21,017 nt of DNA. It comes from Candidatus Fervidifonticultor quintus. Its GTDB lineage: Bacteria; Sysuimicrobiota; Sysuimicrobiia; Sysuimicrobiales; Humicultoraceae. Positions 2,530 through 20,819 of this stretch are shown in pieces. How positions within the stretch are numbered: position 1 is the stretch's first letter; every line of letters begins with the position of its first letter. A model generated the notes under the pieces. The model saw only the letters and a program-made list of their open reading frames with translations. It made no database searches and was not told the origin of the DNA. The stretch covers positions 1-21,017 of the forward strand of contig JAVKIJ010000056.1 in the NCBI GenBank assembly GCA_031459535.1, in the 5' to 3' direction. The position numbers and the translations under genes are program-made.

Positions 2530-2555
2530 GGGGCGGTTCAGCGTCCGGCCGCCCC
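2530..2555 (-). other. GC-rich stem-loop between the binding-protein gene and the first permease gene
   Basis: GGGGCGG (2530-2536) / CCGCCCC (2549-2555) inverted repeat in the 41-bp spacer, without a U-tract. Such hairpins often stabilise the SBP part of the mRNA (inference). Confidence 0.4.
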
Positions 2556-2566
2556 GCTGGCCACGT

Positions 2567-4141: not shown

Positions 4142-4287
4142 CAGAGTCCTCCTCACTGGCGCGCTGTCGGGTTGCTGAGGTGCTTTGACAATCTGCGGCC
4201 CCACACCTGCCCGGGCGCCGTCGCAGGACGGAGCGCGCCGCCAGGGGAATGATCCTCTGGCGTTGGCCACTGACACGAGGGTGTACC

Positions 4288-5709: not shown

Positions 5710-5714
5710 CGCCG
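5682..5714 (+). repeat. Direct repeat copy 1 (last codons and stop of the amidase gene)
   Basis: CCGGCGGCCGCCGGCCCTTAGAGCTTGACGCCG, 29/33 identical to 7054-7086. Confidence 0.85.
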
Positions 5715-5753
5715 CCCTCCGCGAGCCCGGCGATGAGACGGGGAGAGCACCGT

Positions 5754-7019
5754 ATGGCGAGACGCGCGGTCATTGCCGGCATTATAGCCACCGGGCTCGG
5801 AGTCCTGGTCTCTCCAGGACTCGGTCAGGCAACCATTCAATTCTGCCGTGATGTCAGACCGGGCCCCACGTGTGTTGCAGTGCGCGCCACGGTGGAGTGG
5901 CGCGGCCAGGGGAATCTCCCTCCCAGTCACGTGTCCGCCCAGCTGCCCGGCCCCACTCCGGCGGCCGTCTACGAACCACCGGCGACGATCTCCTCGGACG
6001 GCTCCGCAGACGTGACGGCGGCGCTAAACGCGTGGCTGGCTAACGTCCCCAACGGCGCGACGGTCCGGTTCCGACCTGGGGCGGTCTATCGGATCGACCG
6101 CGAGATCACCCTCACGGATCGGAGGGGACTGACGTTCGAGGGAGACGTGACCTTCCGGGCCGGTCCTGAGCCTGCAGATCTCACCGCGCATCAGCGCCGT
6201 ACCCTCAGCGTCTTCAGGCTGCAGGGCGGCGGTGGCTACACGTTTCGGGGCATCCGCATCATCGGGCGGCATCCGGCCGGTGGGACGGCCGAGGCGGCCT
6301 ATGACGCCACGCGCGAAGCGCAGCACGGCTTCTGGCTGGCAGGCGTCCAGGGCATCACCATCGAGGGCACGATCATCAGTGACGTGTACGGGGACTTTGT
6401 GTACGTCGGGCCGGACCTGCGTTCAGGCGTCGTCTGGTCCCGCAACGTCACGATTCGCGGCGGAGAGATGACGCGAAACGGGCGTCAGGGCATCGCCATG
6501 GTGGCCGTGGATGGCATGACCGTCGAGGGCGTGAGGCTGTACAACCTCCGGCGCGCCGTCTTCAATATGGAGCCCACAACCTCCTCCTGGGGAGCACGGA
6601 ACGTGCGCATTATCGGCAACCGCACGGGGGCCGCACGTCTGCTGTGGTTCTCCTCCGCCGGCCAAGGCTGGAACGTCTCCGACGTGGTGATCAGCAGGAA
6701 CGTGATGGAGACAGCCACCGGCGTCCCCTTTGTCTATATGGTCGCCCCTCGCGGCGGCTACCGTGGGCCGCTGGTGGTCGAGCACAACACGATGATCTCG
6801 GGCGGCAGCCCGGCACCTGGGATGCGCTTCGACCGCGTCCGAGTCATTGTCCGCAACAACCTTGTGACGTTCCCACCCCGGCGCCTCATGACCGCCGTGG
6901 GTCTCACCGACGCGGAGGCGACCGTCCAGGGTGACCGCTTCTGCGGCGCGGCGCGGGCCGTGGGCGCGGATCCGCTCTCGCGCGTCACGGAGTCGGACAA
7001 CGTCCTGGTCTGCCCTTAG
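5754..7019 (+). CDS. Secreted right-handed parallel beta-helix (pectin-lyase-like fold) protein
   Basis: Start at ATG 5754 after GGGGAGAG. Signal peptide MARRAVIAGIIATGLGVLVSPGLGQA, Pro-rich linker, D(V)TAALNAWL...GATVRF.PG..YRI N-cap, and repeated beta-helix coils (GITIEGTIISDVYGDFVY, RNVTIRGG...RNGRQGI, DGMTVEG, FNMEP, RNVRIIGN, SDVVISRN, VVEHN, IVRNN). Confidence 0.8.
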   Translation: MARRAVIAGIIATGLGVLVSPGLGQATIQFCRDVRPGPTCVAVRATVEWRGQGNLPPSHVSAQLPGPTPAAVYEPPATISSDGSADVTAALNAWLANVPNGATVRFRPGAVYRIDREITLTDRRGLTFEGDVTFRAGPEPADLTAHQRRTLSVFRLQGGGGYTFRGIRIIGRHPAGGTAEAAYDATREAQHGFWLAGVQGITIEGTIISDVYGDFVYVGPDLRSGVVWSRNVTIRGGEMTRNGRQGIAMVAVDGMTVEGVRLYNLRRAVFNMEPTTSSWGARNVRIIGNRTGAARLLWFSSAGQGWNVSDVVISRNVMETATGVPFVYMVAPRGGYRGPLVVEHNTMISGGSPAPGMRFDRVRVIVRNNLVTFPPRRLMTAVGLTDAEATVQGDRFCGAARAVGADPLSRVTESDNVLVCP

Positions 7020-7148: not shown

Positions 7149-7163
7149 ATTTTAGTGACTCTC

Positions 7164-7445
7164 ATGGCGACGAAGCTGAGCGTTACAGAAGCGGTGAGGA
7201 ATTTCTCCGAGGTCATCGGCCGCGTCCGCTTCAAGGGCGAGCGCTTTGTCCTCCTGAAAGGCGGTAAGCCCGTGGCCGAACTGCGACCGGCCGACACCGC
7301 GGCGCTGGTTCGCCTGAGCGAGCTGCCGGCGCTCCTTGAATCACTGCCGCATCTCGACCCGGGCGATGCCGACCGCTTCGCCGATGACCTCGAGACGGCC
7401 CGCAGCGCGGCGGGTACCACGCCCAAGCCACTGTGGGCATCCTGA
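7164..7445 (+). CDS. Type II antitoxin, Phd/YefM family (VapB role)
   Basis: LSVTEAVRNFSEVIGRV...GERFVLLKGGKPVAELRP matches the Phd/YefM N-terminal pattern; acidic C-terminal half; overlaps the PIN gene. Alternative start GTG 7155. Confidence 0.88.
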   Translation: MATKLSVTEAVRNFSEVIGRVRFKGERFVLLKGGKPVAELRPADTAALVRLSELPALLESLPHLDPGDADRFADDLETARSAAGTTPKPLWAS

Positions 7446-7840
7446 TCGACTCGAGCGTCTTTATCGCCGCAGAGCGCGGCCGCGTGGCCCTGGCCGAGTA
7501 CATTCGCGGCCGTGAGCACGAGCCGGTCGCCATCAGCGCGATCACGGCCAGCGAACTGCTCCACGGGGTCCATCGGGCCCGCGATCCTCGCCAGCGCACT
7601 CGCCGGGCGCAGTTCGTCGAGGCCATCCTGGCCCGCCTGCCGGTCGTCGAGTTCGACCTGGAGACGGCCCGGGTGCACGCGCAACTGTGGGCCGACCTAC
7701 TGGACCGCGGACAGGCGGTAGGAGCGCACGACCTGATCATCGGGGCCACGGCGATTGCCATGGACGTCCAGGTGGCGACGGTCAACGCTGGCGACTTCGA
7801 GCGGATCCCTGGCCTTCAGGTCCAGATCTGGGGCGCATAG
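7433..7840 (+). CDS. vapC: Type II toxin, PIN-domain ribonuclease (VapC family)
   Basis: 135 aa with ILIDSSVFI, SAITASELLHG, GAHDLIIGATA, VATVNAGDFERIPGL (PIN acidic-residue pattern D/E/D/N-D). Directly downstream of, and overlapping, the antitoxin. Confidence 0.93.
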   Translation: MGILIDSSVFIAAERGRVALAEYIRGREHEPVAISAITASELLHGVHRARDPRQRTRRAQFVEAILARLPVVEFDLETARVHAQLWADLLDRGQAVGAHDLIIGATAIAMDVQVATVNAGDFERIPGLQVQIWGA

Positions 7841-7903: not shown

Positions 7904-9358
7904 CTACGCGTCGTAGTACAGGTAGAACTCCGACGGGTGCGGCCGCAGCCGGATGTAGTCCACGTCCTTCTTCCGCTTCGTCTCCACGTAGGTCTCGATC
8001 AGGTCCTCGGTGAACACCCCGCCTTCCAGCAGAAACTTGTGGTCCTTCTCAAGCGCGTCCAGCGCTTCGGCCAGGGACCCCGGCACCTGTTTGATCCTGG
8101 CTGCCTTCGAGGGCGGCAGCTCGTAGAGGTCCACGTCCATCGGTTCACCGGGGTCGATCCGGTTCCTGATGCCATCCAGCCCGGCCATGAGCATCGCGGC
8201 GTTGGCCAGATAGGGGTTAGCGGTGGGATCCGGGGGCCGGTACTCGATGCGCACCGCCCTGGGGTTGGAGGAGTACATCGGGATGCGGACGGCGGCGCTG
8301 CGGTTGCGCTTGGAGTAGACCAGGTTCACCGGTGCCTCGAAGCCGGGCACCAGGCGGCGGTACGAGTTGGTGGTCGGCGCGCAGAACGCCAGCAGGGCCG
8401 GCGAGTGCCGCAGCAGGCCGCCGATGTAGTACCGGGCGATCTCGCTGAGATTCGCGTACCCCCTCGGGTCGTGGAACAAGTTGACGCCGTCCTTCCACAG
8501 ACTCTGGTGGGTGTGCATGCCGGAGCCGTTGTCCCCGAACAGCGGTTTGGGCATGAAGGTCGCAGTCTTGAAGTGCGAGCGGGCCAGCATCTTCACCAGG
8601 TACTTGTAGAGCTGCATCTGGTCGGCCATCCGGGTCAGGCTCCTAAACCGCATGTCGATCTCGCACTGGCCGGCGGTGGCGACCTCGTGGTGGTGCACCT
8701 CGACCTCGATGCCCGCCTCCTGCATCTTCAGCACCAGCTCACTGCGGAAGTCCTGCAGGCTGTCCGAGGGCGGGACCGGGAAGTAGCCTTCCTTAAACCG
8801 GGGCTTGAACCCCAGGTTGGGCTTCTCATCTCGGCCGGTGTTCCACGAGCCTTCACTGCTATCGACGAAGTAGAAGGCGTGGTTGGCGGTCTGATCGTAG
8901 CGCACGTCGTCGAAGACGAAGAACTCGGCCTCAGGCCCGAAGTACGCGGCGGTGGCGATGCCGCTGGCCCGCAGAAAGTCTTCAGCTTTCTGGGCGACGT
9001 ACCGGGGGTCGCGGGTATACCGGCTCCTGGTGATCGGGTCGTAGACATCGCACGTCAGCAGCATGGTCGGCACGCGGGCCAGGGGGTCTATAACCGCTGT
9101 CCCGGCATCGGCCAGGAGGATCATGTCGCTCTCGTGGATGTGCTGGAAGCCGCGGATGCTGCTCCCGTCGAACCCGATGCCCTCTTCAAAGAGGTCTGGG
9201 GTCAGTTCGCGGGCCGGGATCGAGAAGTGCTGCCACATCCCGAACAGATCGGTGAACCGGAGGTCCACAATCTGGACCCCGTGCGATCTGGCCATTTCGA
9301 TGGCCTGTTCGGGGGCCGCCGCGACATCCGCCGACGGCCGGTCGCCTACCATTGCCAT
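7904..9358 (-). CDS. glnA: Glutamine synthetase type I (GSI-beta)
   Basis: FDGSSIRGF, GPEAEFF, GYFPVPP, HHHEVATAGQCEI, PKPLFGDNGSGMHTHQS, NSYRRLVPGFEAP, RNRSAAVRIP, RIEYRPPDP, adenylylation loop DLYELPP, C-terminal RPHPSEFYLYYDA; GSI-beta insertion present. Start moved to ATG 9358 (GAGGAGG 8 nt upstream). Confidence 0.98.
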   Translation of the reverse strand: MAMVGDRPSADVAAAPEQAIEMARSHGVQIVDLRFTDLFGMWQHFSIPARELTPDLFEEGIGFDGSSIRGFQHIHESDMILLADAGTAVIDPLARVPTMLLTCDVYDPITRSRYTRDPRYVAQKAEDFLRASGIATAAYFGPEAEFFVFDDVRYDQTANHAFYFVDSSEGSWNTGRDEKPNLGFKPRFKEGYFPVPPSDSLQDFRSELVLKMQEAGIEVEVHHHEVATAGQCEIDMRFRSLTRMADQMQLYKYLVKMLARSHFKTATFMPKPLFGDNGSGMHTHQSLWKDGVNLFHDPRGYANLSEIARYYIGGLLRHSPALLAFCAPTTNSYRRLVPGFEAPVNLVYSKRNRSAAVRIPMYSSNPRAVRIEYRPPDPTANPYLANAAMLMAGLDGIRNRIDPGEPMDVDLYELPPSKAARIKQVPGSLAEALDALEKDHKFLLEGGVFTEDLIETYVETKRKKDVDYIRLRPHPSEFYLYYDA

Positions 9359-9407
9359 GTCCTGTCCCTCCTCACCCCCCGTGGTGATTGGGGGGAGATT
9401 CTCGTCC

Positions 9408-9443
9408 GGAAAAGCAGAAGGCGCCCACACCAGGGGCGCCTTC
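9408..9443 (-). terminator. Intrinsic terminator/attenuator inside the glnA 5' leader
   Basis: Minus-strand RNA GAAGGCGCCC-CUGGUGU-GGGCGCCUUC (perfect 10-bp stem, 9443-9417) followed by UGCUUUUCC, lying between the promoter and the glnA start. Confidence 0.8.
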
Positions 9444-9551: not shown

Positions 9552-11315
9552 TCACAGCGCCGCCTCGATCACCTCGACGGCCTCCTCAAGCGCCCACCGC
9601 ACCCAGTTGGCCCGACGCCGCAAGAGAACCTCCAGCAAGCGGGCTTCGTGGGTCGCCGGATCCAACGTCCCCAGTAGCGCCGACTGGGCCAGGGCCGGCA
9701 CCGGGGCGGTCACAGGGCCGGGATCGTGATCGAACGGCCCCCCCACGGTGTAGCCAACTGGGACCAGCAGACGCCCGAGCCGCATCACCGCGTCATTGAG
9801 GACCCGCAGCCGTCGCTCGTCACCTGCGGCCTCCGCCGCTGCCAACGCATCGTTCAATCCGGCAGCCGCGACCTCGAGGCGCTCGGCCGCGGCCACCTCG
9901 GTCGAGAGGTCCAGGCGGCCCCGAGCCGCAGCCTGGTAGCCGGCGAGCGCCCGGTGCAGTTCCCGGGCGGTCTGGGCGTAGTCCAGCGGCAGCGCCGGCT
10001 TGTTGACGAGCCTGTAGACCGCCGCCGTATAGATCTGCGTGTCCCGCACCAGCAACGCCTCGTCAATCTTGTCGGTGGTGTCCTCGGTGGTGTGCCACCA
10101 CCAGCCCAACCCCGCCGCGCGCCCGGCGGCGCCCTCGAACAGCGAGAGGCCCCGGGCGGTCTCGGGATTTGCCGCGTCCTGCTCGGAGAAGGTGCCGAAG
10201 AGCGAGGGTACTCCGATGCCGACAAACGACTGGTCGGCGAACCGACCAATGCGCCTGCCGCGGAGCTCCTGTCCTCCGATGGCGCGGACCAGGTCGGCCG
10301 CCAGGGCGATGGTCTCGGCCATGACCGGCGCGTCTTCGAGGACGGTGGCGCCGCGACCGCCCGTGGAGTCGGCGTTCACGTGGGCCACGCAGTGCCGGTA
10401 CAGGTCGTGCCAGAAGGTGTCGGCATACCAGGTCGAGCCGGCGAACCGTCCGTGGGAGTGTCCCGACCAGAACGCGATGCGGATGCAGCGGCGCCGGGGC
10501 CTGGCGGCCAGCACGCCCACGACCTCCAGCATGGTGGCGTTGGCCGACCCGTTGTCCATGGCGCCGTAGTGCCACGAGTCGAGATGGCTCGACAGCAGCA
10601 CGAACCGGTCGGGCTCGACCTGTCCGGGCAGATCGCCGACCAGGAGAGGAATCGTACGCCAGCCCGTCTGCACCTCGCCCCAGGCGCGCACCCGCACTGG
10701 CCCCCGGGCGAGCAACTCGCCAAGCCGCTGGCCGGCTGACCGGGTGACCGAGAAGCTTGGCGTCCTGGGGAGCAGGTCGACGGTCTGGGGCGTCGGTGGC
10801 CCCCACAGGGGCGACACGCTGGTCTCGTGGGTGCAGTCGCCGTGGACATAGATGTGGGCCACCGCGCCGTGCTGCTCGGCCAGTTGCGCCCGGGCACCCA
10901 GTGCCAGACCTTCCACCAGCGCGATCTTGCCCCGCACATCGGCCCGCGCGTACTCCTCCGGCGTGCCGCGCCCGACCGGCACCAGCTCGCCCTCGACGCC
11001 CCCGGGACCGGTGGGTGCCGCGAAGGCGTGGGTGATGCACGGAACTGGCTCATGGACCGGTTCCACGATCTCCATGCGCGCTGCACCCGGCAGGCTGATG
11101 AACGCATGGTGCTGGTAGAGGTGGGTGCTCAGCCCGAGCCCTCGGAGCACACCTTCCACATACTCGAACGCCCGCCGCTCGTCGGGCTCCCCAGACAACC
11201 GAACCCACTGCGCGATTCGTCGGGTGTATGCCATCAACCGGGCGCCCGAGACCGCCGCGACGGCCGCGGCTTCCCCCCGCGCCGGGTCCGGAAGGGCGGA
11301 GGGCACCGCGGTCAC
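9552..11315 (-). CDS. M28-family metallopeptidase with PA domain and helical C-terminal domain; atypical active site
   Basis: PA domain (GELVPVGRGTPEEY...DVRGKIALV), metal-ligand motifs SHLDSW, GAMDNGS, VNADS, WWHTTEDT. FWSGHSHGRFAGS replaces W-x-x-EE-x-G-x-x-GS. GTGA coupling with the upstream gene; no signal peptide. Confidence 0.88.
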   Translation of the reverse strand: MTAVPSALPDPARGEAAAVAAVSGARLMAYTRRIAQWVRLSGEPDERRAFEYVEGVLRGLGLSTHLYQHHAFISLPGAARMEIVEPVHEPVPCITHAFAAPTGPGGVEGELVPVGRGTPEEYARADVRGKIALVEGLALGARAQLAEQHGAVAHIYVHGDCTHETSVSPLWGPPTPQTVDLLPRTPSFSVTRSAGQRLGELLARGPVRVRAWGEVQTGWRTIPLLVGDLPGQVEPDRFVLLSSHLDSWHYGAMDNGSANATMLEVVGVLAARPRRRCIRIAFWSGHSHGRFAGSTWYADTFWHDLYRHCVAHVNADSTGGRGATVLEDAPVMAETIALAADLVRAIGGQELRGRRIGRFADQSFVGIGVPSLFGTFSEQDAANPETARGLSLFEGAAGRAAGLGWWWHTTEDTTDKIDEALLVRDTQIYTAAVYRLVNKPALPLDYAQTARELHRALAGYQAAARGRLDLSTEVAAAERLEVAAAGLNDALAAAEAAGDERRLRVLNDAVMRLGRLLVPVGYTVGGPFDHDPGPVTAPVPALAQSALLGTLDPATHEARLLEVLLRRRANWVRWALEEAVEVIEAAL

Positions 11316-11998
11316 CGGTTCACCCCCGCGATCAGCTTACGCTCCGCCATGGCCGCGAACTCCGCTGCGGTCATGACAAACCCCAGCGCCGCCTCGATCT
11401 CCATCAGCGCGAAGCGGTGGTAATCGGCGCCATTCATGGACCCGCACGCATCGGAGAGGACCACGACGCGGAAGTCGCGGCTGTGAGCGTCGTAGACCGT
11501 GGCCAGGACGCAGTTGTTGGTGTTGACCCCGCAGACGAAGAGCGTCTCCGCCCGCAGCCCGCGGAGGACGGTCTCCAGGTCGGTCCCGTAGAACCCGCTG
11601 TACCGGCGCTTGACGACCACGGGTTCATCGCGCTGCGGGGCCAGCTCCGGCAGGATCTCAGCGTAGACCGACCCCTCCACGTTCTTTCCACTCTGCCGGG
11701 GCCGGCCCATGCCGGGCACGATCTTGCCGGTCTGGTACTCCCAGAACGGATTGCGGTGGTCCACCAACCCCCAGGGCGACGATCGCCGGGAGCAGGTCGC
11801 CACGTGCACGACCGGCATGTGGACCCGCCGGGCAGTCTCCAGGCCGGTGCGCGCCGCGGCGACGATGCCAGCGATTACCGCCGGATCAACCGGATGGTAG
11901 GCGACCGCCGGATCCACATGGCGGCGCTGCATGTCTATCTGGATGTATGCGCTGGCGTCGAGCCTGACGGCATCTTCGACCTCAGCGGGAAGTGCCAC
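11312..11998 (-). CDS. Isochorismatase-family cysteine hydrolase
   Basis: Asp-Lys-Cys triad motifs IDMQ, VVKRRYSGFYGTDLETVLRGL, GVNTNNCVLATVYDA, VVVLSDAC. GAGGAGG SD before GTG 11998. Confidence 0.93.
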   Translation of the reverse strand: MALPAEVEDAVRLDASAYIQIDMQRRHVDPAVAYHPVDPAVIAGIVAAARTGLETARRVHMPVVHVATCSRRSSPWGLVDHRNPFWEYQTGKIVPGMGRPRQSGKNVEGSVYAEILPELAPQRDEPVVVKRRYSGFYGTDLETVLRGLRAETLFVCGVNTNNCVLATVYDAHSRDFRVVVLSDACGSMNGADYHRFALMEIEAALGFVMTAAEFAAMAERKLIAGVNR

Positions 11999-12016
11999 GA
12001 GATACGCCTCCTCTGT

Positions 12017-13228
12017 TCACGGGATCTGTTCTCGCTCGGGCAGGTAGAACGACCGGACCGGCGGGCTGTAGGGGCCAGCCCCCGTCTTCTGCGGTACCAG
12101 GACCATCCTGTTCAGGTCCCGGGGGAGCCTGCCGTCCAGCGCATCCCTCAACCAGTCGGCCAGGAAGGGGTAGATGTCCATCCCCGCGATCCCCTGCCGC
12201 CCGGTGATGCGGTGGAACTCGTTCTCGAACACCCAGAGTTCCCGCGGCCCGGCCAGCTCGTGCACGAACTGCAGCACGTCCTCGAGGTGGCAGAGCGGAT
12301 CGTACTCGCCGGTGACCACCAGCGTCGGGCAACTGATGCGCGCACCGTACCCCTCGGTGGTCATGCGGGCGGCCATCTCGTCGAACGCCGCCTCGTCCCG
12401 CATTCCGGCCATGTACATGAACATCTGCTTGAAGCGCGGCGACGCCTCCTCAAAGATGGCCCGTTTCGACCCGTACACGGCGTGGGTGGTCGCCAGGGCC
12501 CGCACGCGATCGTCCCGCGCGGCCAGCCGGGCGCCCCAGTGGGATCCGAAGCTGGTGCCGTAGACGCCCACGCGGCCGGCGTCCACCTCGGCCCGTCGAA
12601 CCAAGTAGTCGAGACAGGCCTGCGCCGCCCGCTCGTAGTTGTCGTCGGTCACCCAGATCTTGCGGAGGCTGCTGATCCCCTGGCCTGGTCCATCAATGGA
12701 CAGCACATGCATGCCTCGCTGCGCGAAGGCGTTGTCGAGGGGGTTGGGAAAGGCCTCTTTCGTCATATCCATGCCGGGGATGAACAGGATCGCCGGCGCG
12801 CGCGTGCGCCCCGGGAGCAGGTGCAGCAACCCCGCGATGGACCGGCCTTCCCAGGGGATCTCCACGGGCTCGATCGGGTAGTCCGCGAAGGCGATGACCT
12901 TCTCGTAGCACGCGAGCAGACGACCGTGCAGGAACACCTTCTCGGGATGGTCCTCGACGAAGATCGCGTGCTGGGCCTCTCGGTAGGTCTGCGCGGCGCG
13001 CCAGTACAGGGCCAGCGCAGTCCGCCGGTGTCCGGCGCGCTCGGCGGCCCGGGCGATGTCCTCCTCGTGGCGAGCCTTGCGGTAGAGGACCCGCGGGATC
13101 ATCCGGTAGCTCTTCACCTCGGGGGGCAGGTCCCGTTCGTCGTTGGCGAAGTTCTGCACCCGGCCCGTCTGCTTGACGAGCCAGTCCAGGATCCACTGCT
13201 GGTTGTCCCGCCGTCGCACGGTCTTCAT
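12017..13228 (-). CDS. Alpha/beta hydrolase (FrsA / 2,6-dihydroxypseudooxynicotine-hydrolase-like)
   Basis: Helical N-terminal region, then VEIPWEG, PGMDMTKE, DGPGQG, nucleophile elbow GTSFG, acid GEYDPL, His NEFH. AGGAG SD. Confidence 0.85.
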   Translation of the reverse strand: MKTVRRRDNQQWILDWLVKQTGRVQNFANDERDLPPEVKSYRMIPRVLYRKARHEEDIARAAERAGHRRTALALYWRAAQTYREAQHAIFVEDHPEKVFLHGRLLACYEKVIAFADYPIEPVEIPWEGRSIAGLLHLLPGRTRAPAILFIPGMDMTKEAFPNPLDNAFAQRGMHVLSIDGPGQGISSLRKIWVTDDNYERAAQACLDYLVRRAEVDAGRVGVYGTSFGSHWGARLAARDDRVRALATTHAVYGSKRAIFEEASPRFKQMFMYMAGMRDEAAFDEMAARMTTEGYGARISCPTLVVTGEYDPLCHLEDVLQFVHELAGPRELWVFENEFHRITGRQGIAGMDIYPFLADWLRDALDGRLPRDLNRMVLVPQKTGAGPYSPPVRSFYLPEREQIP

Positions 13229-13276
13229 CGGCCCACTCCTGCCGGTTCAGCCATCGAGCGCCTCGAACGGCGCGCG

Positions 13277-14167
13277 TCAGCGCCGCGTCGCACGGGGATC
13301 GAGCGCATCCCGCAGCCCGTCCCCGAACAGATTGAACCCCAGCACCACCAGCATCACGGCCAGCCCGGGATAGATCGCCACGTGGGGGGCTGTGCGCAGG
13401 TACGTGCGTCCGTCAGACAGCATGGCGCCCCACTCCGGAATCGGCGGCTGGGCGCCGAGCCCGAGAAAACCCAGGTAGGCCGCCGACAGAATGGCACCGG
13501 CTAGGTTGAGGGTAGACTGCACGATCACCGGCCCCACGGCATTGGGAAAGACGTGGCGCACCAGAATGCGCCCCTCGTGCAGACCCAGCGCCCGGGCCGC
13601 CTCCACGAACGTTTCCGCCCGCAGGCGGATGACTTCGCCCCGGATGAGCCGCGCATAGAGGGGCATCTGGGCCACGCCGATGGCAATCATCGCGTTGCGG
13701 ATGCCCGGACCGAACAGCGCGACGATGATGATGGCAATCAGGATGGCAGGAAACGACAGGAGGATGTCGATCAGCGTCATCAGGACGTGTCCGACCCATC
13801 CGCCGCGGTAGCCGGCAATCGCGCCGATGGGGAGACCGATGACCGCGGCCACACCCACGGCGATGATCCCGATGACCAGAGAGACCCGTCCGCCGTAGAT
13901 AATGCGGGACAGCAGGTCGCGGCCCTGCTGATCCATCCCCAGCCAGTGCTGGCTTGAGGGGCGCGCCAGCCGCAGCGAGAGGTTGGCGTCCGTGGGGCCG
14001 TAGGGCGCTGCAGCCGGGGCGAAGACCGCCAACAAGACGAAGACCAGCACGACCCCCAACCCGGCCTGGGCGCCCCGATGCCGGCGAAAGCGGCGCCACG
14101 CCCAAGACGTCCTGACCCGGAGAAGCGGACGGCCGGCCGCTGGGGTCTCGGCGGCTGCCTCACGCAT
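13277..14167 (-). CDS. Peptide/nickel ABC transporter permease (DppC-like)
   Basis: HWLGMDQQGRDLLSRIIYGGRVSL, FVEAARALG...HVFPN, LGFLGLGAQPP.PEWGAML, NLFGDGLRDALDPR. Confidence 0.95.
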   Translation of the reverse strand: MREAAAETPAAGRPLLRVRTSWAWRRFRRHRGAQAGLGVVLVFVLLAVFAPAAAPYGPTDANLSLRLARPSSQHWLGMDQQGRDLLSRIIYGGRVSLVIGIIAVGVAAVIGLPIGAIAGYRGGWVGHVLMTLIDILLSFPAILIAIIIVALFGPGIRNAMIAIGVAQMPLYARLIRGEVIRLRAETFVEAARALGLHEGRILVRHVFPNAVGPVIVQSTLNLAGAILSAAYLGFLGLGAQPPIPEWGAMLSDGRTYLRTAPHVAIYPGLAVMLVVLGFNLFGDGLRDALDPRATRR

Positions 14168-15080
14168 GGCGGATCCTGGGATCGAGGGCGGCGTAGGCCA
14201 CGTCCACCAGCATGTTGATCAGCACGAAGACCACCGCCAGCCAGAGCACGATGCCCTGGACCACCGGGTAGTCGCGCTTCGCGATGGCGGTCAGCAGGAA
14301 ACTTCCTAGGCCCGGCAGGCTGAAGACGGTCTCGGTGAGGATGGCGCCGCCCAGCATGCGGCCGAACTCCAGTCCCACGATGGTGACCACGGGAATCAGC
14401 GCGTTGCGCAGGGCGTGGACGACGGCGACGCGCGGGGTCGGCACGCCCTTCGCGTGCGCGGTGCGCACGTAGTCCTGCCTCAGCACGTCGAGCATGGCGG
14501 ACCGGGTCTGGCGCGCGATGATGCCCGCGGCGAAGAACCCCAGGCTCACCGCGGGCAGGATGAAGGCCTGCCAGCCCTCGGCGCCGCCGCTGGGCAGCCA
14601 TCCCAGCACGACCGCAAAGAGGAGGATCAGCAGCATACCCGACCAGAAGATGGGCGTGGAGACGCCCAGCATGGCCACCACCATGCTGCCGTAGTCCCAG
14701 AGCGTGTACACCCGCATCGCACCCAGCAGGCCGGCGGACAGGCCGATGACCAGCGCCACGGCCATGGCCGCAACGGCCAGCACCAGGGTGACCCGGAAAC
14801 GCTGGGCGATCTCCTCGCGGACCTCGAGGTCGCTCACGATGGACCGGCCGAGGTCACCGCGCACCAGGTTCCGCAGGAACACCCCGTACTGGACGGGCAG
14901 CGGCTGGTCCAGACCCCACTGGGCGCGGATGGACGCCACGGTCTCCGGCGTGGCGAAGTCGCCGGCCAGCAGCACCGCCGGGTCTCCCGGCACCGCCCGC
15001 AGCGCCAGGAAGATCAAGACGGTGACGGCCAGCAGGCTGGGGATCGCCAGCAGGAGCCGGCGGGCCAGGTATTGCTTCAT
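14160..15080 (-). CDS. Peptide/nickel ABC transporter permease (DppB-like)
   Basis: PGDPA, GLDQPLPVQY, GDLGRS, PIFW, QDYVRTAHAKG...HALRNALIP, TETVFSLPGLG, RDYPVVQG, LDPRIR. ATGA coupling. Confidence 0.95.
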   Translation of the reverse strand: MKQYLARRLLLAIPSLLAVTVLIFLALRAVPGDPAVLLAGDFATPETVASIRAQWGLDQPLPVQYGVFLRNLVRGDLGRSIVSDLEVREEIAQRFRVTLVLAVAAMAVALVIGLSAGLLGAMRVYTLWDYGSMVVAMLGVSTPIFWSGMLLILLFAVVLGWLPSGGAEGWQAFILPAVSLGFFAAGIIARQTRSAMLDVLRQDYVRTAHAKGVPTPRVAVVHALRNALIPVVTIVGLEFGRMLGGAILTETVFSLPGLGSFLLTAIAKRDYPVVQGIVLWLAVVFVLINMLVDVAYAALDPRIRHA

Positions 15081-16639
15081 CTGAACTCTACGTCATGGAG
15101 CGGCCACGTGGTGGACAGGGAAGTGACGTGCCTGGCGTATCCGTGCACGTTCTTGCGCGTCGCCCAGAAGATGGGCTGCTGGTACATGGGGAGGACCGGC
15201 AGGTCTTGCATGATCACCTGCTGGATCTGCCGGATGATGGCCCGCCGCTTCTCCTGGTCCGGCTCGGTCTGCTGGGCGGCGTAGAGCCGCTCGAACTCCT
15301 CGCTGACGTAGAACGGCACGTTGTTGCCCCGCGGGGGCAGGTCGGCGCGGGTGAAGATGCCGATGGCGCTGTCGGCGTCGGCGTTCACCGTGCGCCACCA
15401 TGTGAAGGTCATCTGGCTGGGGTTTCGTTCCAGGGGCAGCCGCAGCATGGCCGAGTACTGGCCCCACTCCATCTGGTTGATGCGCATCGTCACGCCGATC
15501 TTGGCCAGCTGGGCCTGCACCGCCTCGACGACCTCCTTGTCCATCAGATAGCGGCCGGCGCCATACGAGAACGTAAAGGTCAGGTTGGGGACCCCCGCCT
15601 CCTGGAGCAGCGCCCTGGCCCGTTCGGGGTTGTACCGGTAGATGTCATAGGTGTCCACGTACCCCATGGCGTTGGAGGGCACCGGCGAGTGCGCCACCTT
15701 GGCCAGGCCGGCGAAGATCTGCTTCACGATCGCTTCGCGGTCGATGGCGTAGGCCATAGCGTGGCGCACGCGGATCTCGTTGAACGGCGGCCGCTGGGTG
15801 TTCATGTTGAAGCGGATGAAGCCGGCAGACGGCGGGTTGATGAAGACCAGGTTCGGGTTCCGCTTGATCCGCTCGGCGTCCTGCGGGGTGAAGTCGTGGA
15901 TCACGTCCACGTCGCCCGACTCCAGAGCCGCCACTCGGGCGCTGATGTCCGGGACGTAGCGCACGACGACCCGGCGGATCTTCGGCTTCCCGGCCCAGTA
16001 CTGGTCGAAGGCCTCGAGCTCCATCCGGTCGCCGCGCACGAGCCGGACGAACTTGTAGGGGCCCGGGCCGATCGGGTGCCTGGCGAACTCCTGGTCGCTG
16101 CCGGCCTTCTCGATGGCGGCCTTGCTGAAGATGCCCACGGATTGGTAGGTGAAGGTACGCAGCAGCGGTGCAAACGGCGCCTTGGTGCTGACCTTGACTC
16201 GGTTACCCGGCAGCACGGACACACTCTCCACCGGGGCCAGGGATGAGCGGCCGATGGCGATCCGGCGAAACCGGTCCAGGCTGAAGGCGACGTCGTCTGC
16301 TGTCAGCGTGCGGCCGTCGTGCATCTTCACGTTGTCGCGGATCTTGAAGACCAGCGATCGGCCGCCGTCCTCTTCGGTCCACGACTCGGCGAGCCAGGGT
16401 GTGACCTTGCCCTTTTCATCCAACACCACCAGCGTGTCGGAGATCTGCGCCACCAGGCCGATGGCCGGCAGTCCAATGGCCAGGTGCGTGTCTGCCGACG
16501 GAACCTCGATGGGCAGGGCGATCACCAGGGTGTCCTTCGTCTGCCCCCATGTCGGTCCGGCCAGCACCAACCCCAGGCCGGCCAGCACCACGGTCGCCAC
16601 TCGTACCCACCATCCCACTGCGTCGGTCGTTCTCACCAT
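15077..16639 (-). CDS. Family 5 ABC substrate-binding protein
   Basis: Start moved to ATG 16639 (GAGGAGGAGGGG upstream), followed by a hydrophobic signal peptide. PWLAESW, FKIRDNVKMHDG..LTADDV.FS, IGPGPYKF, FDQYWAGKP, VRHAMAYAIDR. Confidence 0.95.
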   Translation of the reverse strand: MVRTTDAVGWWVRVATVVLAGLGLVLAGPTWGQTKDTLVIALPIEVPSADTHLAIGLPAIGLVAQISDTLVVLDEKGKVTPWLAESWTEEDGGRSLVFKIRDNVKMHDGRTLTADDVAFSLDRFRRIAIGRSSLAPVESVSVLPGNRVKVSTKAPFAPLLRTFTYQSVGIFSKAAIEKAGSDQEFARHPIGPGPYKFVRLVRGDRMELEAFDQYWAGKPKIRRVVVRYVPDISARVAALESGDVDVIHDFTPQDAERIKRNPNLVFINPPSAGFIRFNMNTQRPPFNEIRVRHAMAYAIDREAIVKQIFAGLAKVAHSPVPSNAMGYVDTYDIYRYNPERARALLQEAGVPNLTFTFSYGAGRYLMDKEVVEAVQAQLAKIGVTMRINQMEWGQYSAMLRLPLERNPSQMTFTWWRTVNADADSAIGIFTRADLPPRGNNVPFYVSEEFERLYAAQQTEPDQEKRRAIIRQIQQVIMQDLPVLPMYQQPIFWATRKNVHGYARHVTSLSTTWPLHDVEFR

Positions 16640-17523
16640 GCCCCTCCTCCTCTCCGCGATGGCCTCTGGTGCGCCGTGACTCCGGCCCCGGCGCGCAGCC
16701 TGCGCGTAGGACGATCTGCCCACGGAGAGCCCGCGCCGTAGCCCAGGTCTCTAGAAATGGCAGCCGCGGTGCGGGTCACCTCAGCGACGAGTTGAGGGAT
16801 GCGGTCCCGCGGGATGCGCGCCGCCGGAGCCAGGACGCTGATGCTGGCCACCACCGATCCGGTGTGGTCGCGCACCGGCGCCGCGACGCCGTGGACGCCC
16901 TCGTGGGACTCTCCGAACGTGACGCTGTAGCCCCTGGCCCGGATGGCAGCCAAGTCGCGTCGCAGCCGCTGCGGGTCGGTAATCGTCAAAGGCGTCAGCG
17001 CCGGCAGCCCGCGCCGGATCACCTGCTCGATCCGTTCGGCCGGCAGGTGCGCCAGCAGGACCTTCATCGAGCACCCGGCATGGAGCGGCCGACGCATTCC
17101 CACCCGCGTCCACAGCCGGAACCCGGCCAGCGGTTCCAGTTTCTCGACGTAGATCCCCTCGTGGCCGTCGACGACCTGCAGCGAGACGGTCTCGCCGGTC
17201 CGGTCGCGCAGCCGCTCCATGTGGGGCCGGGCGATGGGACGGAGCTCGATCTGTTCGCTGACCAGGTAGCCGCGTTCGAGCAACTTGTAACCCAGACGGA
17301 AGCCGCGGGTCGCCGCATCGTAGTGGAGATAGCCGAAGTCTCGCAGGGCAGAGAGCAGCCGGTGGGTGGTGGCGCGGGGGAGGCCGGACGCCTCGGTGAG
17401 CTGCTGGAGGGTGAGCTCAGGGCGCTCGAGGCTGAACAGGTCCAGCAGGCCCAGGGCTTTGCCGAGGCTCGAGGGGGAATCGAGCCGGGACCGGTGTCGC
17501 CGCCCAGGGGTCGTATATCTCAC
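16633..17523 (-). CDS. IclR-family transcriptional regulator
   Basis: SLGKALGLLDLF, HTH LQQLTEASGLPRATTHRLL, FRLG, GETVSL, VGMRRPLHAGCSMKVLLA, IRARGYS...E...GVHGVAAPV. The track's start (17562) lies inside the promoter, so GTG 17523 is preferred; the start remains uncertain. Confidence 0.93.
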   Translation of the reverse strand: MRYTTPGRRHRSRLDSPSSLGKALGLLDLFSLERPELTLQQLTEASGLPRATTHRLLSALRDFGYLHYDAATRGFRLGYKLLERGYLVSEQIELRPIARPHMERLRDRTGETVSLQVVDGHEGIYVEKLEPLAGFRLWTRVGMRRPLHAGCSMKVLLAHLPAERIEQVIRRGLPALTPLTITDPQRLRRDLAAIRARGYSVTFGESHEGVHGVAAPVRDHTGSVVASISVLAPAARIPRDRIPQLVAEVTRTAAAISRDLGYGAGSPWADRPTRRLRAGAGVTAHQRPSRRGGGAW

Positions 17524-17532
17524 TATGTGAGA
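17518..17532. promoter_or_regulatory. 15-bp palindrome, candidate IclR operator
   Basis: TCTCAC-TAT-GTGAGA, a perfect 6-3-6 inverted repeat downstream of the promoter and overlapping the likely GTG start. Confidence 0.7.
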
Positions 17533-17552
17533 CGCCGTCCTATATTTTGTGC

Positions 17553-17581
17553 ATCGTAGCACGGTGGCAGCGCGCGTACAA
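17553..17581 (-). promoter_or_regulatory. Sigma70-type promoter of the IclR operon
   Basis: TTGTAC (17581-17576), 17 nt, TACGAT (17558-17553) with an extended -10 TGn. Confidence 0.72.
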
Positions 17582-17622: not shown

Positions 17623-18255
17623 CTACCGACCCTCGCCCTGCGCGGCACGCACTGCCCGCAGCTCGACCTTCCGCAGGGTCCAGTTGGCGGTCAGCGCCAG
17701 CCCCGATGACCCCAGAGCGCCCGCCATGATCTTGTCGGGATGGCTCTGGGCCACGCCGGCGAAGAGCAGGACCCCCAGACCCCCCGCGTTGATGAACGCG
17801 GCGATGGTCCCGATTCCGATGATCGTCAGGATCGCCACCCGGGTGCCGGCTACGATCACGGGCAGAGCCAGCGGCAACTCCACCCGCCACAGGCGCTGCC
17901 AGGACGTCATCCCCATCCCCCGGGCCGCCTCTACGGCGGCCGGGTCGACCCCCAGCAACCCGACGGTGATGTTGCGGACCAGGATGACCTGCGCGTAGAC
18001 CGCCAGCGCCATTACCGCGGGTACGAACCCCAGCCCCATCAACGGGATCAACAGCACGAACAGGGCCAGACTGGGAATGGTGTAGATCACGCCCAGGACA
18101 CCCAGCAGCAACCCGCGGAAGCGGGGACGGCGAGCGGCCAGCACACCCAGCGGCAGCGCGATACCCGCGGCCACCGCCAGTGAGGCCGCGGTGAGCCACA
18201 GGTGCTGGCCGACCAGCCCGAGCACCACCGTCGGGTGCGCGATCAGGTAGCGCAT
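17623..18255 (-). CDS. Osmoprotectant-type (OpuBB/ProW-like) ABC permease
   Basis: True start ATG 18255 (TGATG overlap with the ATPase stop); the longer track ORF is a spurious extension. IYTIPSLALF, VEAARGMGMT..QRLWRVELPLALPVI.AG.R, IAAFINAGGLG. Confidence 0.93.
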   Translation of the reverse strand: MRYLIAHPTVVLGLVGQHLWLTAASLAVAAGIALPLGVLAARRPRFRGLLLGVLGVIYTIPSLALFVLLIPLMGLGFVPAVMALAVYAQVILVRNITVGLLGVDPAAVEAARGMGMTSWQRLWRVELPLALPVIVAGTRVAILTIIGIGTIAAFINAGGLGVLLFAGVAQSHPDKIMAGALGSSGLALTANWTLRKVELRAVRAAQGEGR

Positions 18256-19232
18256 CAGGTCGCCACCGACGGCCGCCCTGCCAGGATCGTCCGCCTGATG
18301 TCCTCGAAGGCCAGCCGTCCCACCACCCGACCGGCCTCTCCGAGGACGGCCACGCTCGCCGACCCCGTCTGGAGCAGCAGCGACAGCGCCGTGCGCAGGG
18401 TATCCGCGGGCCCGACGGCCGGTCCCAGACCGCCGTCGTCCGGCCCCGGGCCTGCTGCCGCCATTGCCGAGGCGACCGGCACTAGGCTCAGGTGGCGCAT
18501 CACGTCGTCGGTCCCCAGGAGCTGCCGGACGAAGTCGTCGCGCGGCTGTGTGACGACCGCCAGCGGCACGTCGTGCTGGACGATGCGGCCGGCGCGCATA
18601 ACGGCGATCCGGTCGGCGAGCCGCAGCGCCTCGTCCACATCGTGGGTCACGAAGACCACGGTCTTGCGCAGCCGCCGCTGGATCGCCAGGAGCTCGTCCT
18701 GCAGGCGGGCGCGGGTGATGGCATCCAGGGCGCCAAACGGCTCGTCCATCAACATGATGGCGGGGTCTGCGGCCAGCGCCCGCGCGAGCCCCACCCGCTG
18801 CTGCTCGCCGCCGGAGAGCTGGCGGGGATATCGCCGACCGTAGGACCGTGGCAGGCCCACCAGGTCCAGCAGCTCGTCCACCCGAGCGCGGATCCGGTCT
18901 CTCGGCCATCCGAGCAACTCGGGGACCGTGGCGATGTTGTGCTCGACGCGCAGATGGGGAAACAGGCCAACCTGCTGGATCACATAGCCGATGCGGCGTC
19001 GCAGCTCATGGCCACGCATGGTCTGGACGTCGACGCCGTCCAGCAGGATCCGGCCGCGATCGGGCTCGTACAGCCGGTTGATCAGCTTCAGCAGGGTGGT
19101 CTTGCCCGAGCCCGAGGGTCCGAGCAAGACCACGAGGGTGCCGCGGTCGACTGACAGCGAGCAGTCCCAAACCGCCGGGTGCGCAGTCCCCTCAAACTGC
19201 TTGCTGACGTGCTCGATGTCGATGGCGCCCAC
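18255..19232 (-). CDS. Osmoprotectant-type ABC ATP-binding protein (OpuBA/ProV-like) with a CBS-like C-terminus
   Basis: GPSGSGKTT, LRRRIGYVIQQVGLFPH, YPRQLSGGEQQRVG, LMDEPFGALD, FVTHDVDEA. The C-terminal segment TLRTALSLL...VAVL...GRVVGRL resembles a CBS repeat. Confidence 0.95.
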   Translation of the reverse strand: MGAIDIEHVSKQFEGTAHPAVWDCSLSVDRGTLVVLLGPSGSGKTTLLKLINRLYEPDRGRILLDGVDVQTMRGHELRRRIGYVIQQVGLFPHLRVEHNIATVPELLGWPRDRIRARVDELLDLVGLPRSYGRRYPRQLSGGEQQRVGLARALAADPAIMLMDEPFGALDAITRARLQDELLAIQRRLRKTVVFVTHDVDEALRLADRIAVMRAGRIVQHDVPLAVVTQPRDDFVRQLLGTDDVMRHLSLVPVASAMAAAGPGPDDGGLGPAVGPADTLRTALSLLLQTGSASVAVLGEAGRVVGRLAFEDIRRTILAGRPSVAT

Positions 19233-20134
19233 TAGCGCTTGATCAAACCCTTCGCCTGCAAGAAGGCCCTGGCGACCGCCGCGTACTCTCGCTTGTCCGG
19301 CCCGTCCACCTGCCAGTTGAGGCCGGCCATGACCTCGTTGGTCAGCAGCGGAGCCAGCTTGCTCAACGCCTCGGCGATCTTGGGATTCTTCTCCAGGACC
19401 TCGGCGCGCACCACGGGAGCGGCCTGGTAGGCCGGGTAGAACCCCTTGTCGTCCTCCAGCAGCACCAGACCGAGCCCGCTGATCTGTCCGTCGGTGCTGA
19501 ACGCGACAACCACGTCCACCTGACCGGCCCGCAGGGCTTCATAGCGCAGGCTCCCGGTGCCGAGCTGGCGGAATTCCTTGAACTGGAAGCCCCCGTACGC
19601 CCCCTGCAGGCCCTTGATGCCATCTTCGCGTTCGGCGAACTCCGCCGGACCGCCCAACCGCAGCTCGGGGGCTTTCGTCGCCAGGTCCGAGAAGGTCTTG
19701 ATGCCATATCGCTCCGAGACGTCCTTCGTGGTGGCGAGCGCCTGCGTATCATTGAACTGCGCGGGTTCCAGCCACTCGAGCTTGAACTGCTCCTTGTACC
19801 CTTTGCGCACGGCCTCCAGGACCGCCTTCGGATCAGCGATGGGCGGCTGTTTGAGAACCGTCAGCAGGCCGGTGCTGGTGTACTCAGGGTACAGGTCGAT
19901 CTCACCTTTCACCAGCGCCTCGTGGGCCACCGGCGTTCCTCCCAGGTTGAACTTCCTCTCGACCTTGAAGCCAGCATCCTCGAGCAGCAGAGCGTACATC
20001 TCGGCAAGGATGAACTCCTCGGTAAAGTCCTTCGAGCCCACCCTGAGCGTGACCGGCGCCCCACCCCGCGGCCCACAGGCTGCCACCAGTGCCACAACCA
20101 GGAACACCACCGACAGACGCCACCAGCGCTTCAC
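19232..20134 (-). CDS. Glycine-betaine/osmoprotectant-family ABC substrate-binding lipoprotein (OpuBC/OsmF-like)
   Basis: Lipobox LVAAC; VGSKDFTEEFILAEMY, LGGT, DLYPEYTST, EFAEREDG, FSTDG, LEDDKGFYPAY, LN.QVD. Confidence 0.93.
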   Translation of the reverse strand: MKRWWRLSVVFLVVALVAACGPRGGAPVTLRVGSKDFTEEFILAEMYALLLEDAGFKVERKFNLGGTPVAHEALVKGEIDLYPEYTSTGLLTVLKQPPIADPKAVLEAVRKGYKEQFKLEWLEPAQFNDTQALATTKDVSERYGIKTFSDLATKAPELRLGGPAEFAEREDGIKGLQGAYGGFQFKEFRQLGTGSLRYEALRAGQVDVVVAFSTDGQISGLGLVLLEDDKGFYPAYQAAPVVRAEVLEKNPKIAEALSKLAPLLTNEVMAGLNWQVDGPDKREYAAVARAFLQAKGLIKR

Positions 20135-20150
20135 ATCGACCCCCCCTTGT

Positions 20151-20792: not shown

Positions 20793-20799
20793 CTCCCCC

Positions 20800-20805
20800 A
20801 TTCTA
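20800..20805 (-). promoter_or_regulatory. Candidate -10 element of a leaderless transcript
   Basis: TAGAAT, 7 nt, ATG 20792; no good -35. Confidence 0.45.
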
Positions 20806-20819
20806 CCGGCCACCGCGCG

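Follow-up and report, generated by a model that had tools for sequence, protein, structure and literature searches.

An IclR-led uptake-and-hydrolase operon of Candidatus Fervidifonticultor quintus, best read as one variable member of a Dpp-linked cassette family

Gene content and organisation

The subject of this report is a seven-gene operon on the minus strand of a 21,017-nucleotide stretch of DNA (hereafter the window, meaning that whole stretch; positions 1 to 21,017 of contig JAVKIJ010000056.1) from Candidatus Fervidifonticultor quintus, whose genome assembly (GCA_031459535.1) is 3.1 Mb and 89% complete. Because the window is 65-71% G+C, coding frames were chosen by third-position G+C (GC3) with a GC3-based caller, and all seven frames of the operon are intact with high GC3. 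From the promoter side onward, the genes encode an IclR-family regulator (16633-17562; Pfam domains HTH_IclR and IclR_C), a family-5 solute-binding protein (SBP; open reading frame 15077-16723, likely gene 15077-16639; SBP_bac_5), an ATP-binding cassette (ABC) permease of the DppB/GsiC type (PermB, 14160-15080; BPD_transp_1 and BPD_transp_1_N) and one of the DppC/GsiD type (PermC, 13277-14167; BPD_transp_1 and OppC_N), an alpha/beta hydrolase resembling FrsA and 2,6-dihydroxypseudooxynicotine (DHPON) hydrolase (ABH, 12017-13228; FrsA-like and other alpha/beta-hydrolase models), an isochorismatase-fold cysteine hydrolase (ISO, 11312-11998; Isochorismatase, PF00857) and an M28-like protein (9552-11315; Peptidase_M28 and PA). 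The unit is real, with a conserved promoter and operator, and its most plausible place is within a family of Dpp-linked hydrolase cassettes, as a variable member.

The packing of the genes is tight. Given an SBP start at ATG 16639, IclR and SBP overlap by 7 nt (ATGGTGA); SBP and PermB overlap by 4 nt (ATGA) at the SBP stop codon, and PermB and PermC by 8 nt. Gaps of 48 nt and 18 nt separate PermC from ABH and ABH from ISO, respectively, and ISO and the M28-like gene overlap by 4 nt (GTGA). A first-pass annotation, made from the letters alone, had described seven co-oriented genes, overlapping or closely spaced, behind a promoter-like site and a palindrome, and had called them an IclR-led uptake and hydrolase unit free of oxidoreductases. 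The layout and domain content bear out this description, and a Pfam scan of the seven genes found no oxidoreductase domain. Only the product of the downstream neighbour glnA reached an NCBIfam equivalog cut-off; the best matches of the other gene products (BhcR, GsiB/C/D, FrsA, BiuH and RutB) fell well below theirs. Rfam returned no match across the window at gathering scores.

Between 95% and 97% of sampled words of the window were present in three DNA runs labelled hot springs metagenome, compared with 33% in an RNA-library run of the same study and a fraction of 0.06-0.07 in runs X5-X7. At low depth, contigs from the RNA library reach 27 of 30 bins and run across two junctions, ISO/M28 and PermB/PermC, which is weak evidence of transcription given possible DNA carry-over. 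The three bins without cover lie inside glnA (two) and upstream of the promoter (one), and contigs of this kind cannot show absence, starts or strands.

Regulatory region and the IclR protein

A promoter-like site upstream of the operon (17553-17581, minus strand) was read as a putative -35 element TTGTAC (17581-17576), a 17-nt spacer and an extended -10 element TGcTACGAT (17561-17553). The consensus promoter scanner made no call for this site. An alignment of the window with three orthologous loci shows that both the -35 and the -10 blocks are kept in all four. Downstream of these elements lies a perfect 15-nt palindrome, TCTCACATAGTGAGA (17518-17532), which is kept in the four loci as TCTCAyATnGTGAGA and whose exact sequence occurs once in the 3.1-Mb genome. 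This palindrome is the probable operator of the operon, and we infer that IclR binds it. A second copy with one mismatch (C138:5442-5456) was set aside as being at chance level, the reversed-pattern control likewise giving one match.

The first GTG of the IclR open reading frame (17562) falls within the -10 element, and for this reason translation probably starts at GTG 17523 to give a 296-aa product. Both domains of the family are present (HTH_IclR, PF09339, E = 1.4e-14; IclR_C, PF01614, E = 1.1e-44), and none of the named regulators BhcR, PcaR/PcaU, KdgR, IclR and AllR reached its NCBIfam equivalog cut-off, the best being BhcR with 170.2 against 350 bits. Orthologues 79-80% identical to this regulator occur in a locus of the same genus (L002) and in two loci from another genus of the same family (L092 and L093). 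Directly upstream of IclR is an Opu-type (glycine betaine/choline) ABC system (17623-20813, minus strand) made up of two permeases, an ATPase and an OpuAC binding protein, and a system of this type likewise precedes IclR in L002.

An importer without its own ATPases

The SBP (SBP_bac_5, E = 2.5e-92) carries an N-terminal signal peptide and probably starts at ATG 16639, behind GGAGGAGG. Its best solved relatives are YliB/GsiB and DppA, and its orthologues are 92% identical in L002, 77% in a further locus (L075) and 76-78% in L092 and L093. A family-5 binding protein together with two BPD_transp_1 permeases identifies the system as an importer of the Dpp/Opp (PepT) type, and the Pfam scan found no Dpp/Opp-type ATPase pair with oligo_HPY in the seven-gene unit; the ABC_tran match nearest to the operon belongs to the upstream Opu-type system. 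How, then, is import powered? The 89%-complete genome yielded only two full oligo_HPY ATPase genes, both on contig C76. Genome-wide tblastn at a coverage of at least 50% found 57 matches of the SBP_bac_5 type, 53 of the PermB type and 51 of the PermC type, so that the genome carries about 50 Dpp-type cassettes, most of them without ATPase genes (for example on C106, C94, C62, C67 and C69). An ABC ATPase lies within 4 kb of 3 of the 51 PermC-type genes; 16 others are near a contig end, and 32 have none despite more than 4 kb to the contig end. With 3 of 51 PermC genes having a nearby ABC_tran match, ATPase-less cassettes are the rule in this genome, which suggests that a few shared ATPases serve many importers. 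A second Dpp-type cassette is present in the window itself, in the region 3-4276 (minus strand) / 4249-7019 (plus strand). It comprises an SBP, two permeases and an ABC ATPase of which the contig end leaves only the start, and two genes diverge from it, one with the amidase signature and one for a 437-aa protein without a Pfam match.

One explanation is that this is a nickel or metallophore importer and that the remaining genes encode accessory proteins. The permeases do lie near nickel models (Opp2B, 312.6 bits against a cut-off of 350; Opp2C, 294.2 against 300) and the SBP matches Opp5A/NikA at E = 1.7e-55. However, all of these scores are under their cut-offs and the glutathione and dipeptide models do equally well or better; moreover, three cytoplasmic hydrolases and an IclR regulator are ill-suited to metal uptake, and the genome has about 50 similar cassettes. 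We reject this explanation, which has very little chance of being correct.

The alpha/beta hydrolase

ABH matches PF06500 with 49.6 bits against a cut-off of 22. The motifs named in the first-pass annotation (PGMDxTKE, DGPGQG and GxSxG) are present as PGMDMTKE (residue 151), DGPGQG (179) and GTSFG (224), invariant or nearly so in 14 homologues, across which the triad Ser226-Asp310-His339 is also invariant. Among PDB sequences, DHPON hydrolase is the closest to ABH (2jbw, E = 9.5e-17), and a fold search with the predicted model (pLDDT 77.7) returns 2jbw first, followed by Wdyg1p, Ayg1p and AntI, which are polyketide-shortening C-C hydrolases, and then by SMU_737 and FrsA. The proposal that ABH is nearest to C-C hydrolases thus holds both by sequence and by fold, and by analogy with 2jbw, Wdyg1p, Ayg1p and AntI the enzyme may perform C-C (retro-Claisen) hydrolysis. 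It did not reach the cut-off of the esterase FrsA equivalog NF003460 (56.6 against 477 bits).

At E ≤ 0.001, 932 of 8000 scored candidates came out as homologues of ABH, and identity to it is 55-100% within the best 120. The orthologues, 55-84% identical across phyla, form a separate and highly conserved clade, and 457 stretches in a species-genome collection encode an ABH relative. Among 41 related genomes (a set that includes the unpublished G013 and G022), orthologues at least 77% identical occur in three (G000, the window's own genome; G001; and G029), and the other 10 matches are 31-35% identical. For the queries made, the ESM Atlas gave no clusters beyond the generic "alpha/beta hydrolase" and "M28 family peptidase" ones.

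Six Bathyarchaeia contigs (L047, L055, L057, L074, L077 and L078) encode the ABH family at 66-70% identity, above most bacterial phyla, and this degree of likeness hints at transfer between domains. A plasmid collection contributed 25 records with ABH relatives, all of them at most 41% identical and none within a named pathway. The three plasmid contexts inspected were a lone gene with MarR/LysR in Bacillus, an M24-ABH-ABC arrangement in Haloarcula and a Liv-type ABC system beside ABH in Cupriavidus. On the Haloarcula plasmid (NZ_CP142029.1, 209782-212519), the ABH relative (41%) is divergent from an Xaa-Pro/M24 peptidase gene and is followed by an ABC transporter, an arrangement that echoes the link between ABH and M24 seen in bacteria.

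The isochorismatase-fold hydrolase

ISO matches PF00857 at E = 1.8e-40, and its triad Asp22-Lys130-Cys163 aligns with the triad regions of 6xix and 3irv. The nearest solved relatives are 3irv, the triuret/biuret hydrolases, N-carbamoylsarcosine amidase and RutB; the triad and these relatives support the initial assignment to isochorismatase-fold proteins akin to amide and ureide hydrolases. Neither equivalog cut-off was reached by ISO (BiuH, 72.6 against 370 bits; RutB, 71.7 against 378).

The M28-like protein

The M28-like protein is the most unusual part of the operon. It combines Peptidase_M28 and PA domains, a signal peptide was not found in it, and its predicted model (pLDDT 90.4, pTM 0.91) superposes over its full length on GCPII, GCPIII, NAALADase-L and TfR1 (TM 0.75-0.80, about 720 alignment columns). 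The adjacent Glu-Glu pair that supplies the general base and a zinc ligand in M28 metallopeptidases is missing: His286-Ser287, followed by His288, lies opposite the Glu-Glu of 4twe and of the bacterial aminopeptidase 2ek8 (in the 4twe alignment, "ghsh" against "aeef"). In 15 family members from several phyla the segments FWSGHSHGR, HxDSW, GAMDN, NxDS and GWWWHT are invariant, GHSHGR being present in all 15. Because the His-Ser-His motif is invariant across phyla, the active site is a conserved variant rather than a decayed one.

The family is also abundant, with matches in 37 of the 41 related genomes and up to 13 matches per related genome. The tblastn survey of the window's genome found seven M28-like matches, compared with four ISO-like and two ABH-like ones. 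Six are full length: the window copy (9552-11315) and those at C106:6218-8029, C106:20066-21868, C84:50624-52438, C101:1240-3030 and C39:165-1934. The contexts of the five other paralogues are an SBP-PermB-PermC-PGA_cap-ApbA-SDR-M28-like run, two AstE/AspA genes with PermC-PermB-SBP-SBP, an AroM-M28-like-MR_MLE-PermB-PermC-SBP-GntR run, an SSF-M28-like-PGA_cap run, and a gamma-glutamyltranspeptidase-Asp/Glu racemase-M28-like run. Genes of the PGA_cap/MslH-like type adjoin the family in three contexts, and the PGA_cap protein of a Bacillota locus (L016) is nearest to the lasso-peptide epimerase MslH, below cut-off. Since the paralogues adjoin uptake systems and enzymes of peptides and amino acids, their surroundings suggest that the family acts on unusual peptides or amino-acid conjugates.

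Does the operon, then, carry out ordinary peptide scavenging? Under that explanation di- and oligopeptides would be imported by a Dpp-type system and digested by an S9/S33-like serine peptidase, a C-terminal amidase and an M28 peptidase. The relationship of the SBP to DppA and GsiB fits this scheme, as do the 57 SBP_bac_5 matches in the genome and the matches of ABH to the Peptidase_S9, S15 and S33 models and to the acylaminoacyl peptidase 3fnb. Furthermore, one report (PMC11604079) places Fervidifonticultor in phylum CSP1-3 (Sysuimicrobiota) and describes expression of peptide and amino-acid assimilation genes by CSP1-3 bacteria. However, the M28-like protein has an invariant replacement where a peptidase would have its catalytic Glu-Glu pair, the closest relatives of ABH by sequence and by fold are C-C hydrolases and not peptidases, ABH orthologues across phyla are mostly found in non-peptide contexts, and a dedicated IclR regulator suggests one specific inducer. 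We regard ordinary peptide scavenging as unlikely.

At the other extreme, the His-Ser-His motif of the GCPII/TfR-fold protein could mark a rebuilt metal centre in a working enzyme whose chemistry is new for the M28 fold. With ABH and ISO this enzyme would form a purely hydrolytic route for a natural product of hot-spring communities, such as a peptide conjugate that is modified, gamma-linked or built with a D-residue, and the paralogues, six to thirteen per genome, would serve as a toolkit for a whole class of these compounds. This idea is a speculative one that we hold to be improbable.

The glutamine synthetase boundary

At least 121 nt downstream of the M28-like gene lies glnA (7904-9430, minus strand), which encodes a type I glutamine synthetase (TIGR00653, 663.7 bits against a cut-off of 429) and which we place outside the unit. 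The 121-nt gap contains a promoter-like site found by the consensus scan, TTGACG-17-TATAGT with a TG extension (9502-9474; 10 of 12 matches). None of four other loci with an orthologue of the M28-like gene (L002, L016, L092 and L093) has glnA next to it, unrelated genes being found there, and GlnA occurs in one ABH locus of the 80 surveyed below (L024, 30% identical). Given the unconserved order in four loci and the promoter-like site of its own, the adjacency is treated as coincidental, and the earlier proposal that the neighbouring glutamine synthetase captures released ammonium is not upheld. Between the promoter-like site and the likely glnA start (Met25, at about 9358) there is a 10-bp G+C-rich hairpin with a T-rich tail (9417-9443, minus strand), which may serve as an attenuator in the leader or terminate the upstream operon. 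A Phd/YefM antitoxin and PIN-domain toxin pair (7155-7840, plus strand) is convergent with glnA.

Distribution of the genes among relatives

To what extent do these genes travel together? The window proteins were compared with the best 80 of the 457 ABH-encoding stretches. Orthologues of ISO (47-83% identical) are present in eight of the 80 ABH loci (L001, L002, L003, L004, L008, L009, L016 and L075) and the M28-like protein in two (L002 and L016). The same-genus locus L002, counted as one with G001:C68, which shares its gene order, is closest to the window, with DNA 77-85% identical over IclR and over the SBP-to-M28 segment. Its IclR and SBP genes are separated by a 3.3-kb insert, which only L002 has and in which the large subunit of a molybdopterin oxidoreductase (MoCo subunit) and an Amidohydro_2 protein are encoded. 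In L092 and L093 the order is IclR (79-80%)-Amidohydro_2-M24 (creatinase/prolidase-like)-SBP (76-78%)-PermB-PermC-M28-like (73%), with neither ABH nor ISO. The order in L075 is ABH-SBP (77%)-PermB-PermC-ISO (80%)-split TPP decarboxylase-PrpB-like lyase, without an M28-like gene. The Bacillota locus L016 reads SBP-PermB-PermC-ISO-M28-like-PGA_cap-OYE-ABH (OYE, Old Yellow Enzyme), and L003, from the Thermomicrobiaceae, has IclR followed by M24-M24-SBP-PermB-PermC-ISO-ABH-Amidohydro_2. Three more loci (L001, L004 and L009) carry ISO-ABH-SDR, and an SDR gene lies beside ABH in four of the eight ISO-ABH loci. One SBP orthologue is thus coupled to differing enzyme sets, and relatives swap enzymes freely. 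This distribution ties the M28-like gene to the core of transporter genes and sets ABH and ISO apart as a pair of their own, with patchy occurrence in this order.

These comparisons bear directly on the scheme of the first-pass annotation, in which the three hydrolases form a dedicated redox-free pathway that dismantles one imported N-containing compound stepwise, with glutamine synthetase capturing the ammonium. The seven genes are indeed packed as one unit without an oxidoreductase, and enzymes of the ISO type release ammonia. The trio of ABH, ISO and M28-like genes recurs in L002 and L016, but these are just two of 80 other ABH loci; the operons of L092 and L093 retain IclR, SBP, permeases and the M28-like gene without ABH and ISO, and L075 retains SBP, ABH and ISO without the M28-like gene. 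The three hydrolases are not a fixed set, and a single pathway formed by them is not supported. The redox-free part of the scheme stands in some relatives and fails in others. Five of seven related Dpp-linked clusters (the window, L092, L093, L003 and L075) have hydrolase- or lyase-only gene runs, but the MoCo subunit and an OYE flavoenzyme lie within the runs of L002 and L016, respectively, and at least one of five oxidoreductase clusters is found within three genes of ABH in 37 of the 80 loci. Redox-free composition as a pathway trait is weakened further by the SDR genes beside ABH in four ISO-ABH loci, and by the lack of close orthologues of the L002 MoCo and Amidohydro_2 genes in the 89%-complete assembly of the window's genome, where the best matches are 42.5% and 41% identical. 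With the adjacency of glnA also unconserved, a dedicated three-step pathway is quite improbable.

Clustering of the ABH neighbours, with Pfam run on cluster representatives, gives a wider view of the 80 loci. The most frequent neighbours are SDR (23 loci, 18 within three genes), MFS transporters (17, all adjacent) and a PdxA-like dehydrogenase (17), followed by a molybdopterin large subunit (16), SnoaL_4 (15), amidase (10), luciferase-like monooxygenase (10) and Amidohydro_2 (7). In the window's own genome, a paralogous cluster at C62:2-4489 has the order ABH-like (28%)-M24-MoCo large subunit, and another at C81:10529-20000 has Liv-type ABC-ISO (43%)-alcohol dehydrogenase-M24-2-hydroxyacid dehydrogenase-alcohol dehydrogenase-CoxM-CoxL, so that, with the window, the same enzyme families recur together three times in this genome.

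The neighbourhoods also raise the question of whether the operon is a decaying remnant. In this explanation an ancestral heterocycle or beta-dicarbonyl cluster, in which a molybdenum hydroxylase and an Amidohydro_2 decarboxylase stood upstream of the C-C hydrolase and amidase as in nicotine- or nicotinate-type routes, has lost its upstream enzymes by deletion, leaving the window copy incomplete or reliant on paralogues. The 3.3-kb indel relative to L002 fits such a loss, the MoCo large-subunit and Amidohydro_2 clusters accompany ABH in 16 and 7 of the 80 loci, respectively, and the C62 and C81 clusters keep related enzymes in the same genome. However, the seven frames of the window copy are intact with high GC3, and its active-site residues are retained. 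Moreover, the L002 MoCo subunit is nearest to glyceraldehyde-dehydrogenase/CO-dehydrogenase-like models, under all cut-offs, and matches no named heterocycle hydroxylase; the operons of L092 and L093 have no MoCo gene, and no ring-cleaving dioxygenase was seen in the window. A decaying remnant therefore has little probability in our judgement.

Discussion

On balance, and with moderate confidence, we favour the view that the locus serves the uptake and hydrolysis of a small N-containing compound, as an operon induced by its substrate and autoregulated through IclR, and that it is built as a mosaic of separately evolving modules and not as a fixed three-step pathway. The modular part of this view is drawn from the differing enzyme partners of the SBP orthologue. 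The first module would be a conserved core of promoter, palindromic operator, IclR, SBP, two permeases and M28-like protein. The second would be the ABH-ISO pair, which in this genus sits between the permease and the M28-like gene and elsewhere accompanies SDR, Amidohydro_2 and M24. The third would be a variable slot between IclR and SBP; in relatives it is occupied by a MoCo subunit, Amidohydro_2 or M24, and the window has nothing there. As substrate we favour a peptide with a modification, a conjugate of an amino acid or a small (organic) acid that bears an amide. The locus is probably a fairly ordinary scavenging operon, one of many uncharacterised regulator-transporter-hydrolase operons.

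What was observed directly is the gene content, packing, conserved promoter and operator, intact triads, folds and modular distribution; on these we build a model in which each catalytic step, the substrate class and the regulation are proposed. The substrate would be captured by the SBP and imported through PermB/PermC, powered by Dpp-type ATPases encoded elsewhere. In the cytoplasm the GCPII-fold protein would remove an acidic, gamma-linked or otherwise unusual amino-acid moiety, ISO would liberate ammonia from an amide, carbamoyl or ureido group at the end of the molecule, and ABH would cleave either a C-C bond adjacent to a carbonyl or the bond of an ester or amide. Release of IclR from the palindrome would be brought about by the substrate or by an intermediate.

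Several points weigh against this view. The neighbourhoods of ABH in other phyla contain MFS, TctC, a MoCo subunit, PdxA-like, SnoaL and amidase genes; these contexts outside the Sysuimicrobiota fit small carboxylates or heterocycles better than peptides, and because of them ABH and ISO may act on a substrate other than that of the M28-like protein. PDB titles describe the E424A and E424M forms of GCPII as inactive, and since the residue mutated in these forms is missing from the M28-like protein, the latter may have no hydrolase activity whatsoever. The ABH-ISO pair may have been gained in this genus or lost in the other, and orthologues of the relative's MoCo and Amidohydro_2 genes could sit in unassembled DNA, given 89% completeness. 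The RNA evidence consists of contigs, which cannot show one transcript, and membership of one operon is no proof of a common substrate.

The initial statement that the gene set is not a described pathway is upheld. Equivalog cut-offs, the PDB and annotated plasmids yielded no matching described pathway, and the literature search, whose coverage did not extend to subscription journals, found no paper that joins a DHPON/FrsA-type C-C hydrolase with an isochorismatase gene cluster. The maleamate (Nic) and Rut pathways are excluded by the lack of a ring-cleaving dioxygenase or a RutA-type monooxygenase domain in the operon and in the rest of the window.

If the modular view is true, the value of the locus lies in two enzyme families and not in a new pathway. 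One is the ABH clade, 55-84% identical from Bathyarchaeia to Proteobacteria, whose nearest studied relatives cut C-C bonds. The other is a prokaryotic branch of the GCPII/TfR fold in which four metal-ligand positions are kept and the catalytic Glu-Glu is swapped for an invariant His-Ser-His. The substrates of both families, once found, would annotate thousands of genes, and would also reveal the purpose of the roughly 50 ATPase-less Dpp-type cassettes in these hot-spring bacteria.

Comparison with known systems

In its transport part, the operon resembles importers of the Dpp/Gsi type (PepT family) in having a family-5 binding protein and DppB- and DppC-type permeases, and differs from them in that the unit carries no ATPase genes. 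For the enzymes, the best fold match of the ABH model is DHPON hydrolase 2JBW (E = 8e-21, TM 0.69/0.77). An N-terminal helical domain joined to an alpha/beta core, a Ser-Asp-His triad and the DGPGQG motif are common to ABH, 2JBW and the Wdyg1p/Ayg1p/AntI enzymes, whereas identity to 2JBW is 22-23% in the structural alignment and the window is without ketone-dehydrogenase or pyridine genes. ISO has the same fold as the triuret/biuret hydrolases and N-carbamoylsarcosine amidase and an aligned Asp-Lys-Cys triad, but the E-values are only 1e-14 to 1e-17 and equivalog scores stay below their cut-offs.

Pairs of an alpha/beta hydrolase and an isochorismatase-fold amidase are known from N-heterocycle catabolism, in which NicD/NicF act in the maleamate route and RutD/RutB in pyrimidine use. 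In the window, too, the gene of an alpha/beta hydrolase adjoins that of an isochorismatase-fold Cys amidase, although we take ABH to belong to the FrsA-like family and not to the small NicD/RutD type.

The M28-like protein differs from GCPII and TfR1 in being prokaryotic, in having neither a signal peptide nor a membrane anchor, and in having six paralogues in one genome, and Glu424-Glu425 of GCPII is replaced in it by His286-Ser287. Four of the five metal-ligand positions of GCPII nevertheless align in the M28-like protein, at His244, Asp254, Asp316 and His408, and the full three-domain architecture is common to it and to the M28B-fold proteins GCPII/III, NAALADase-L and TfR1.

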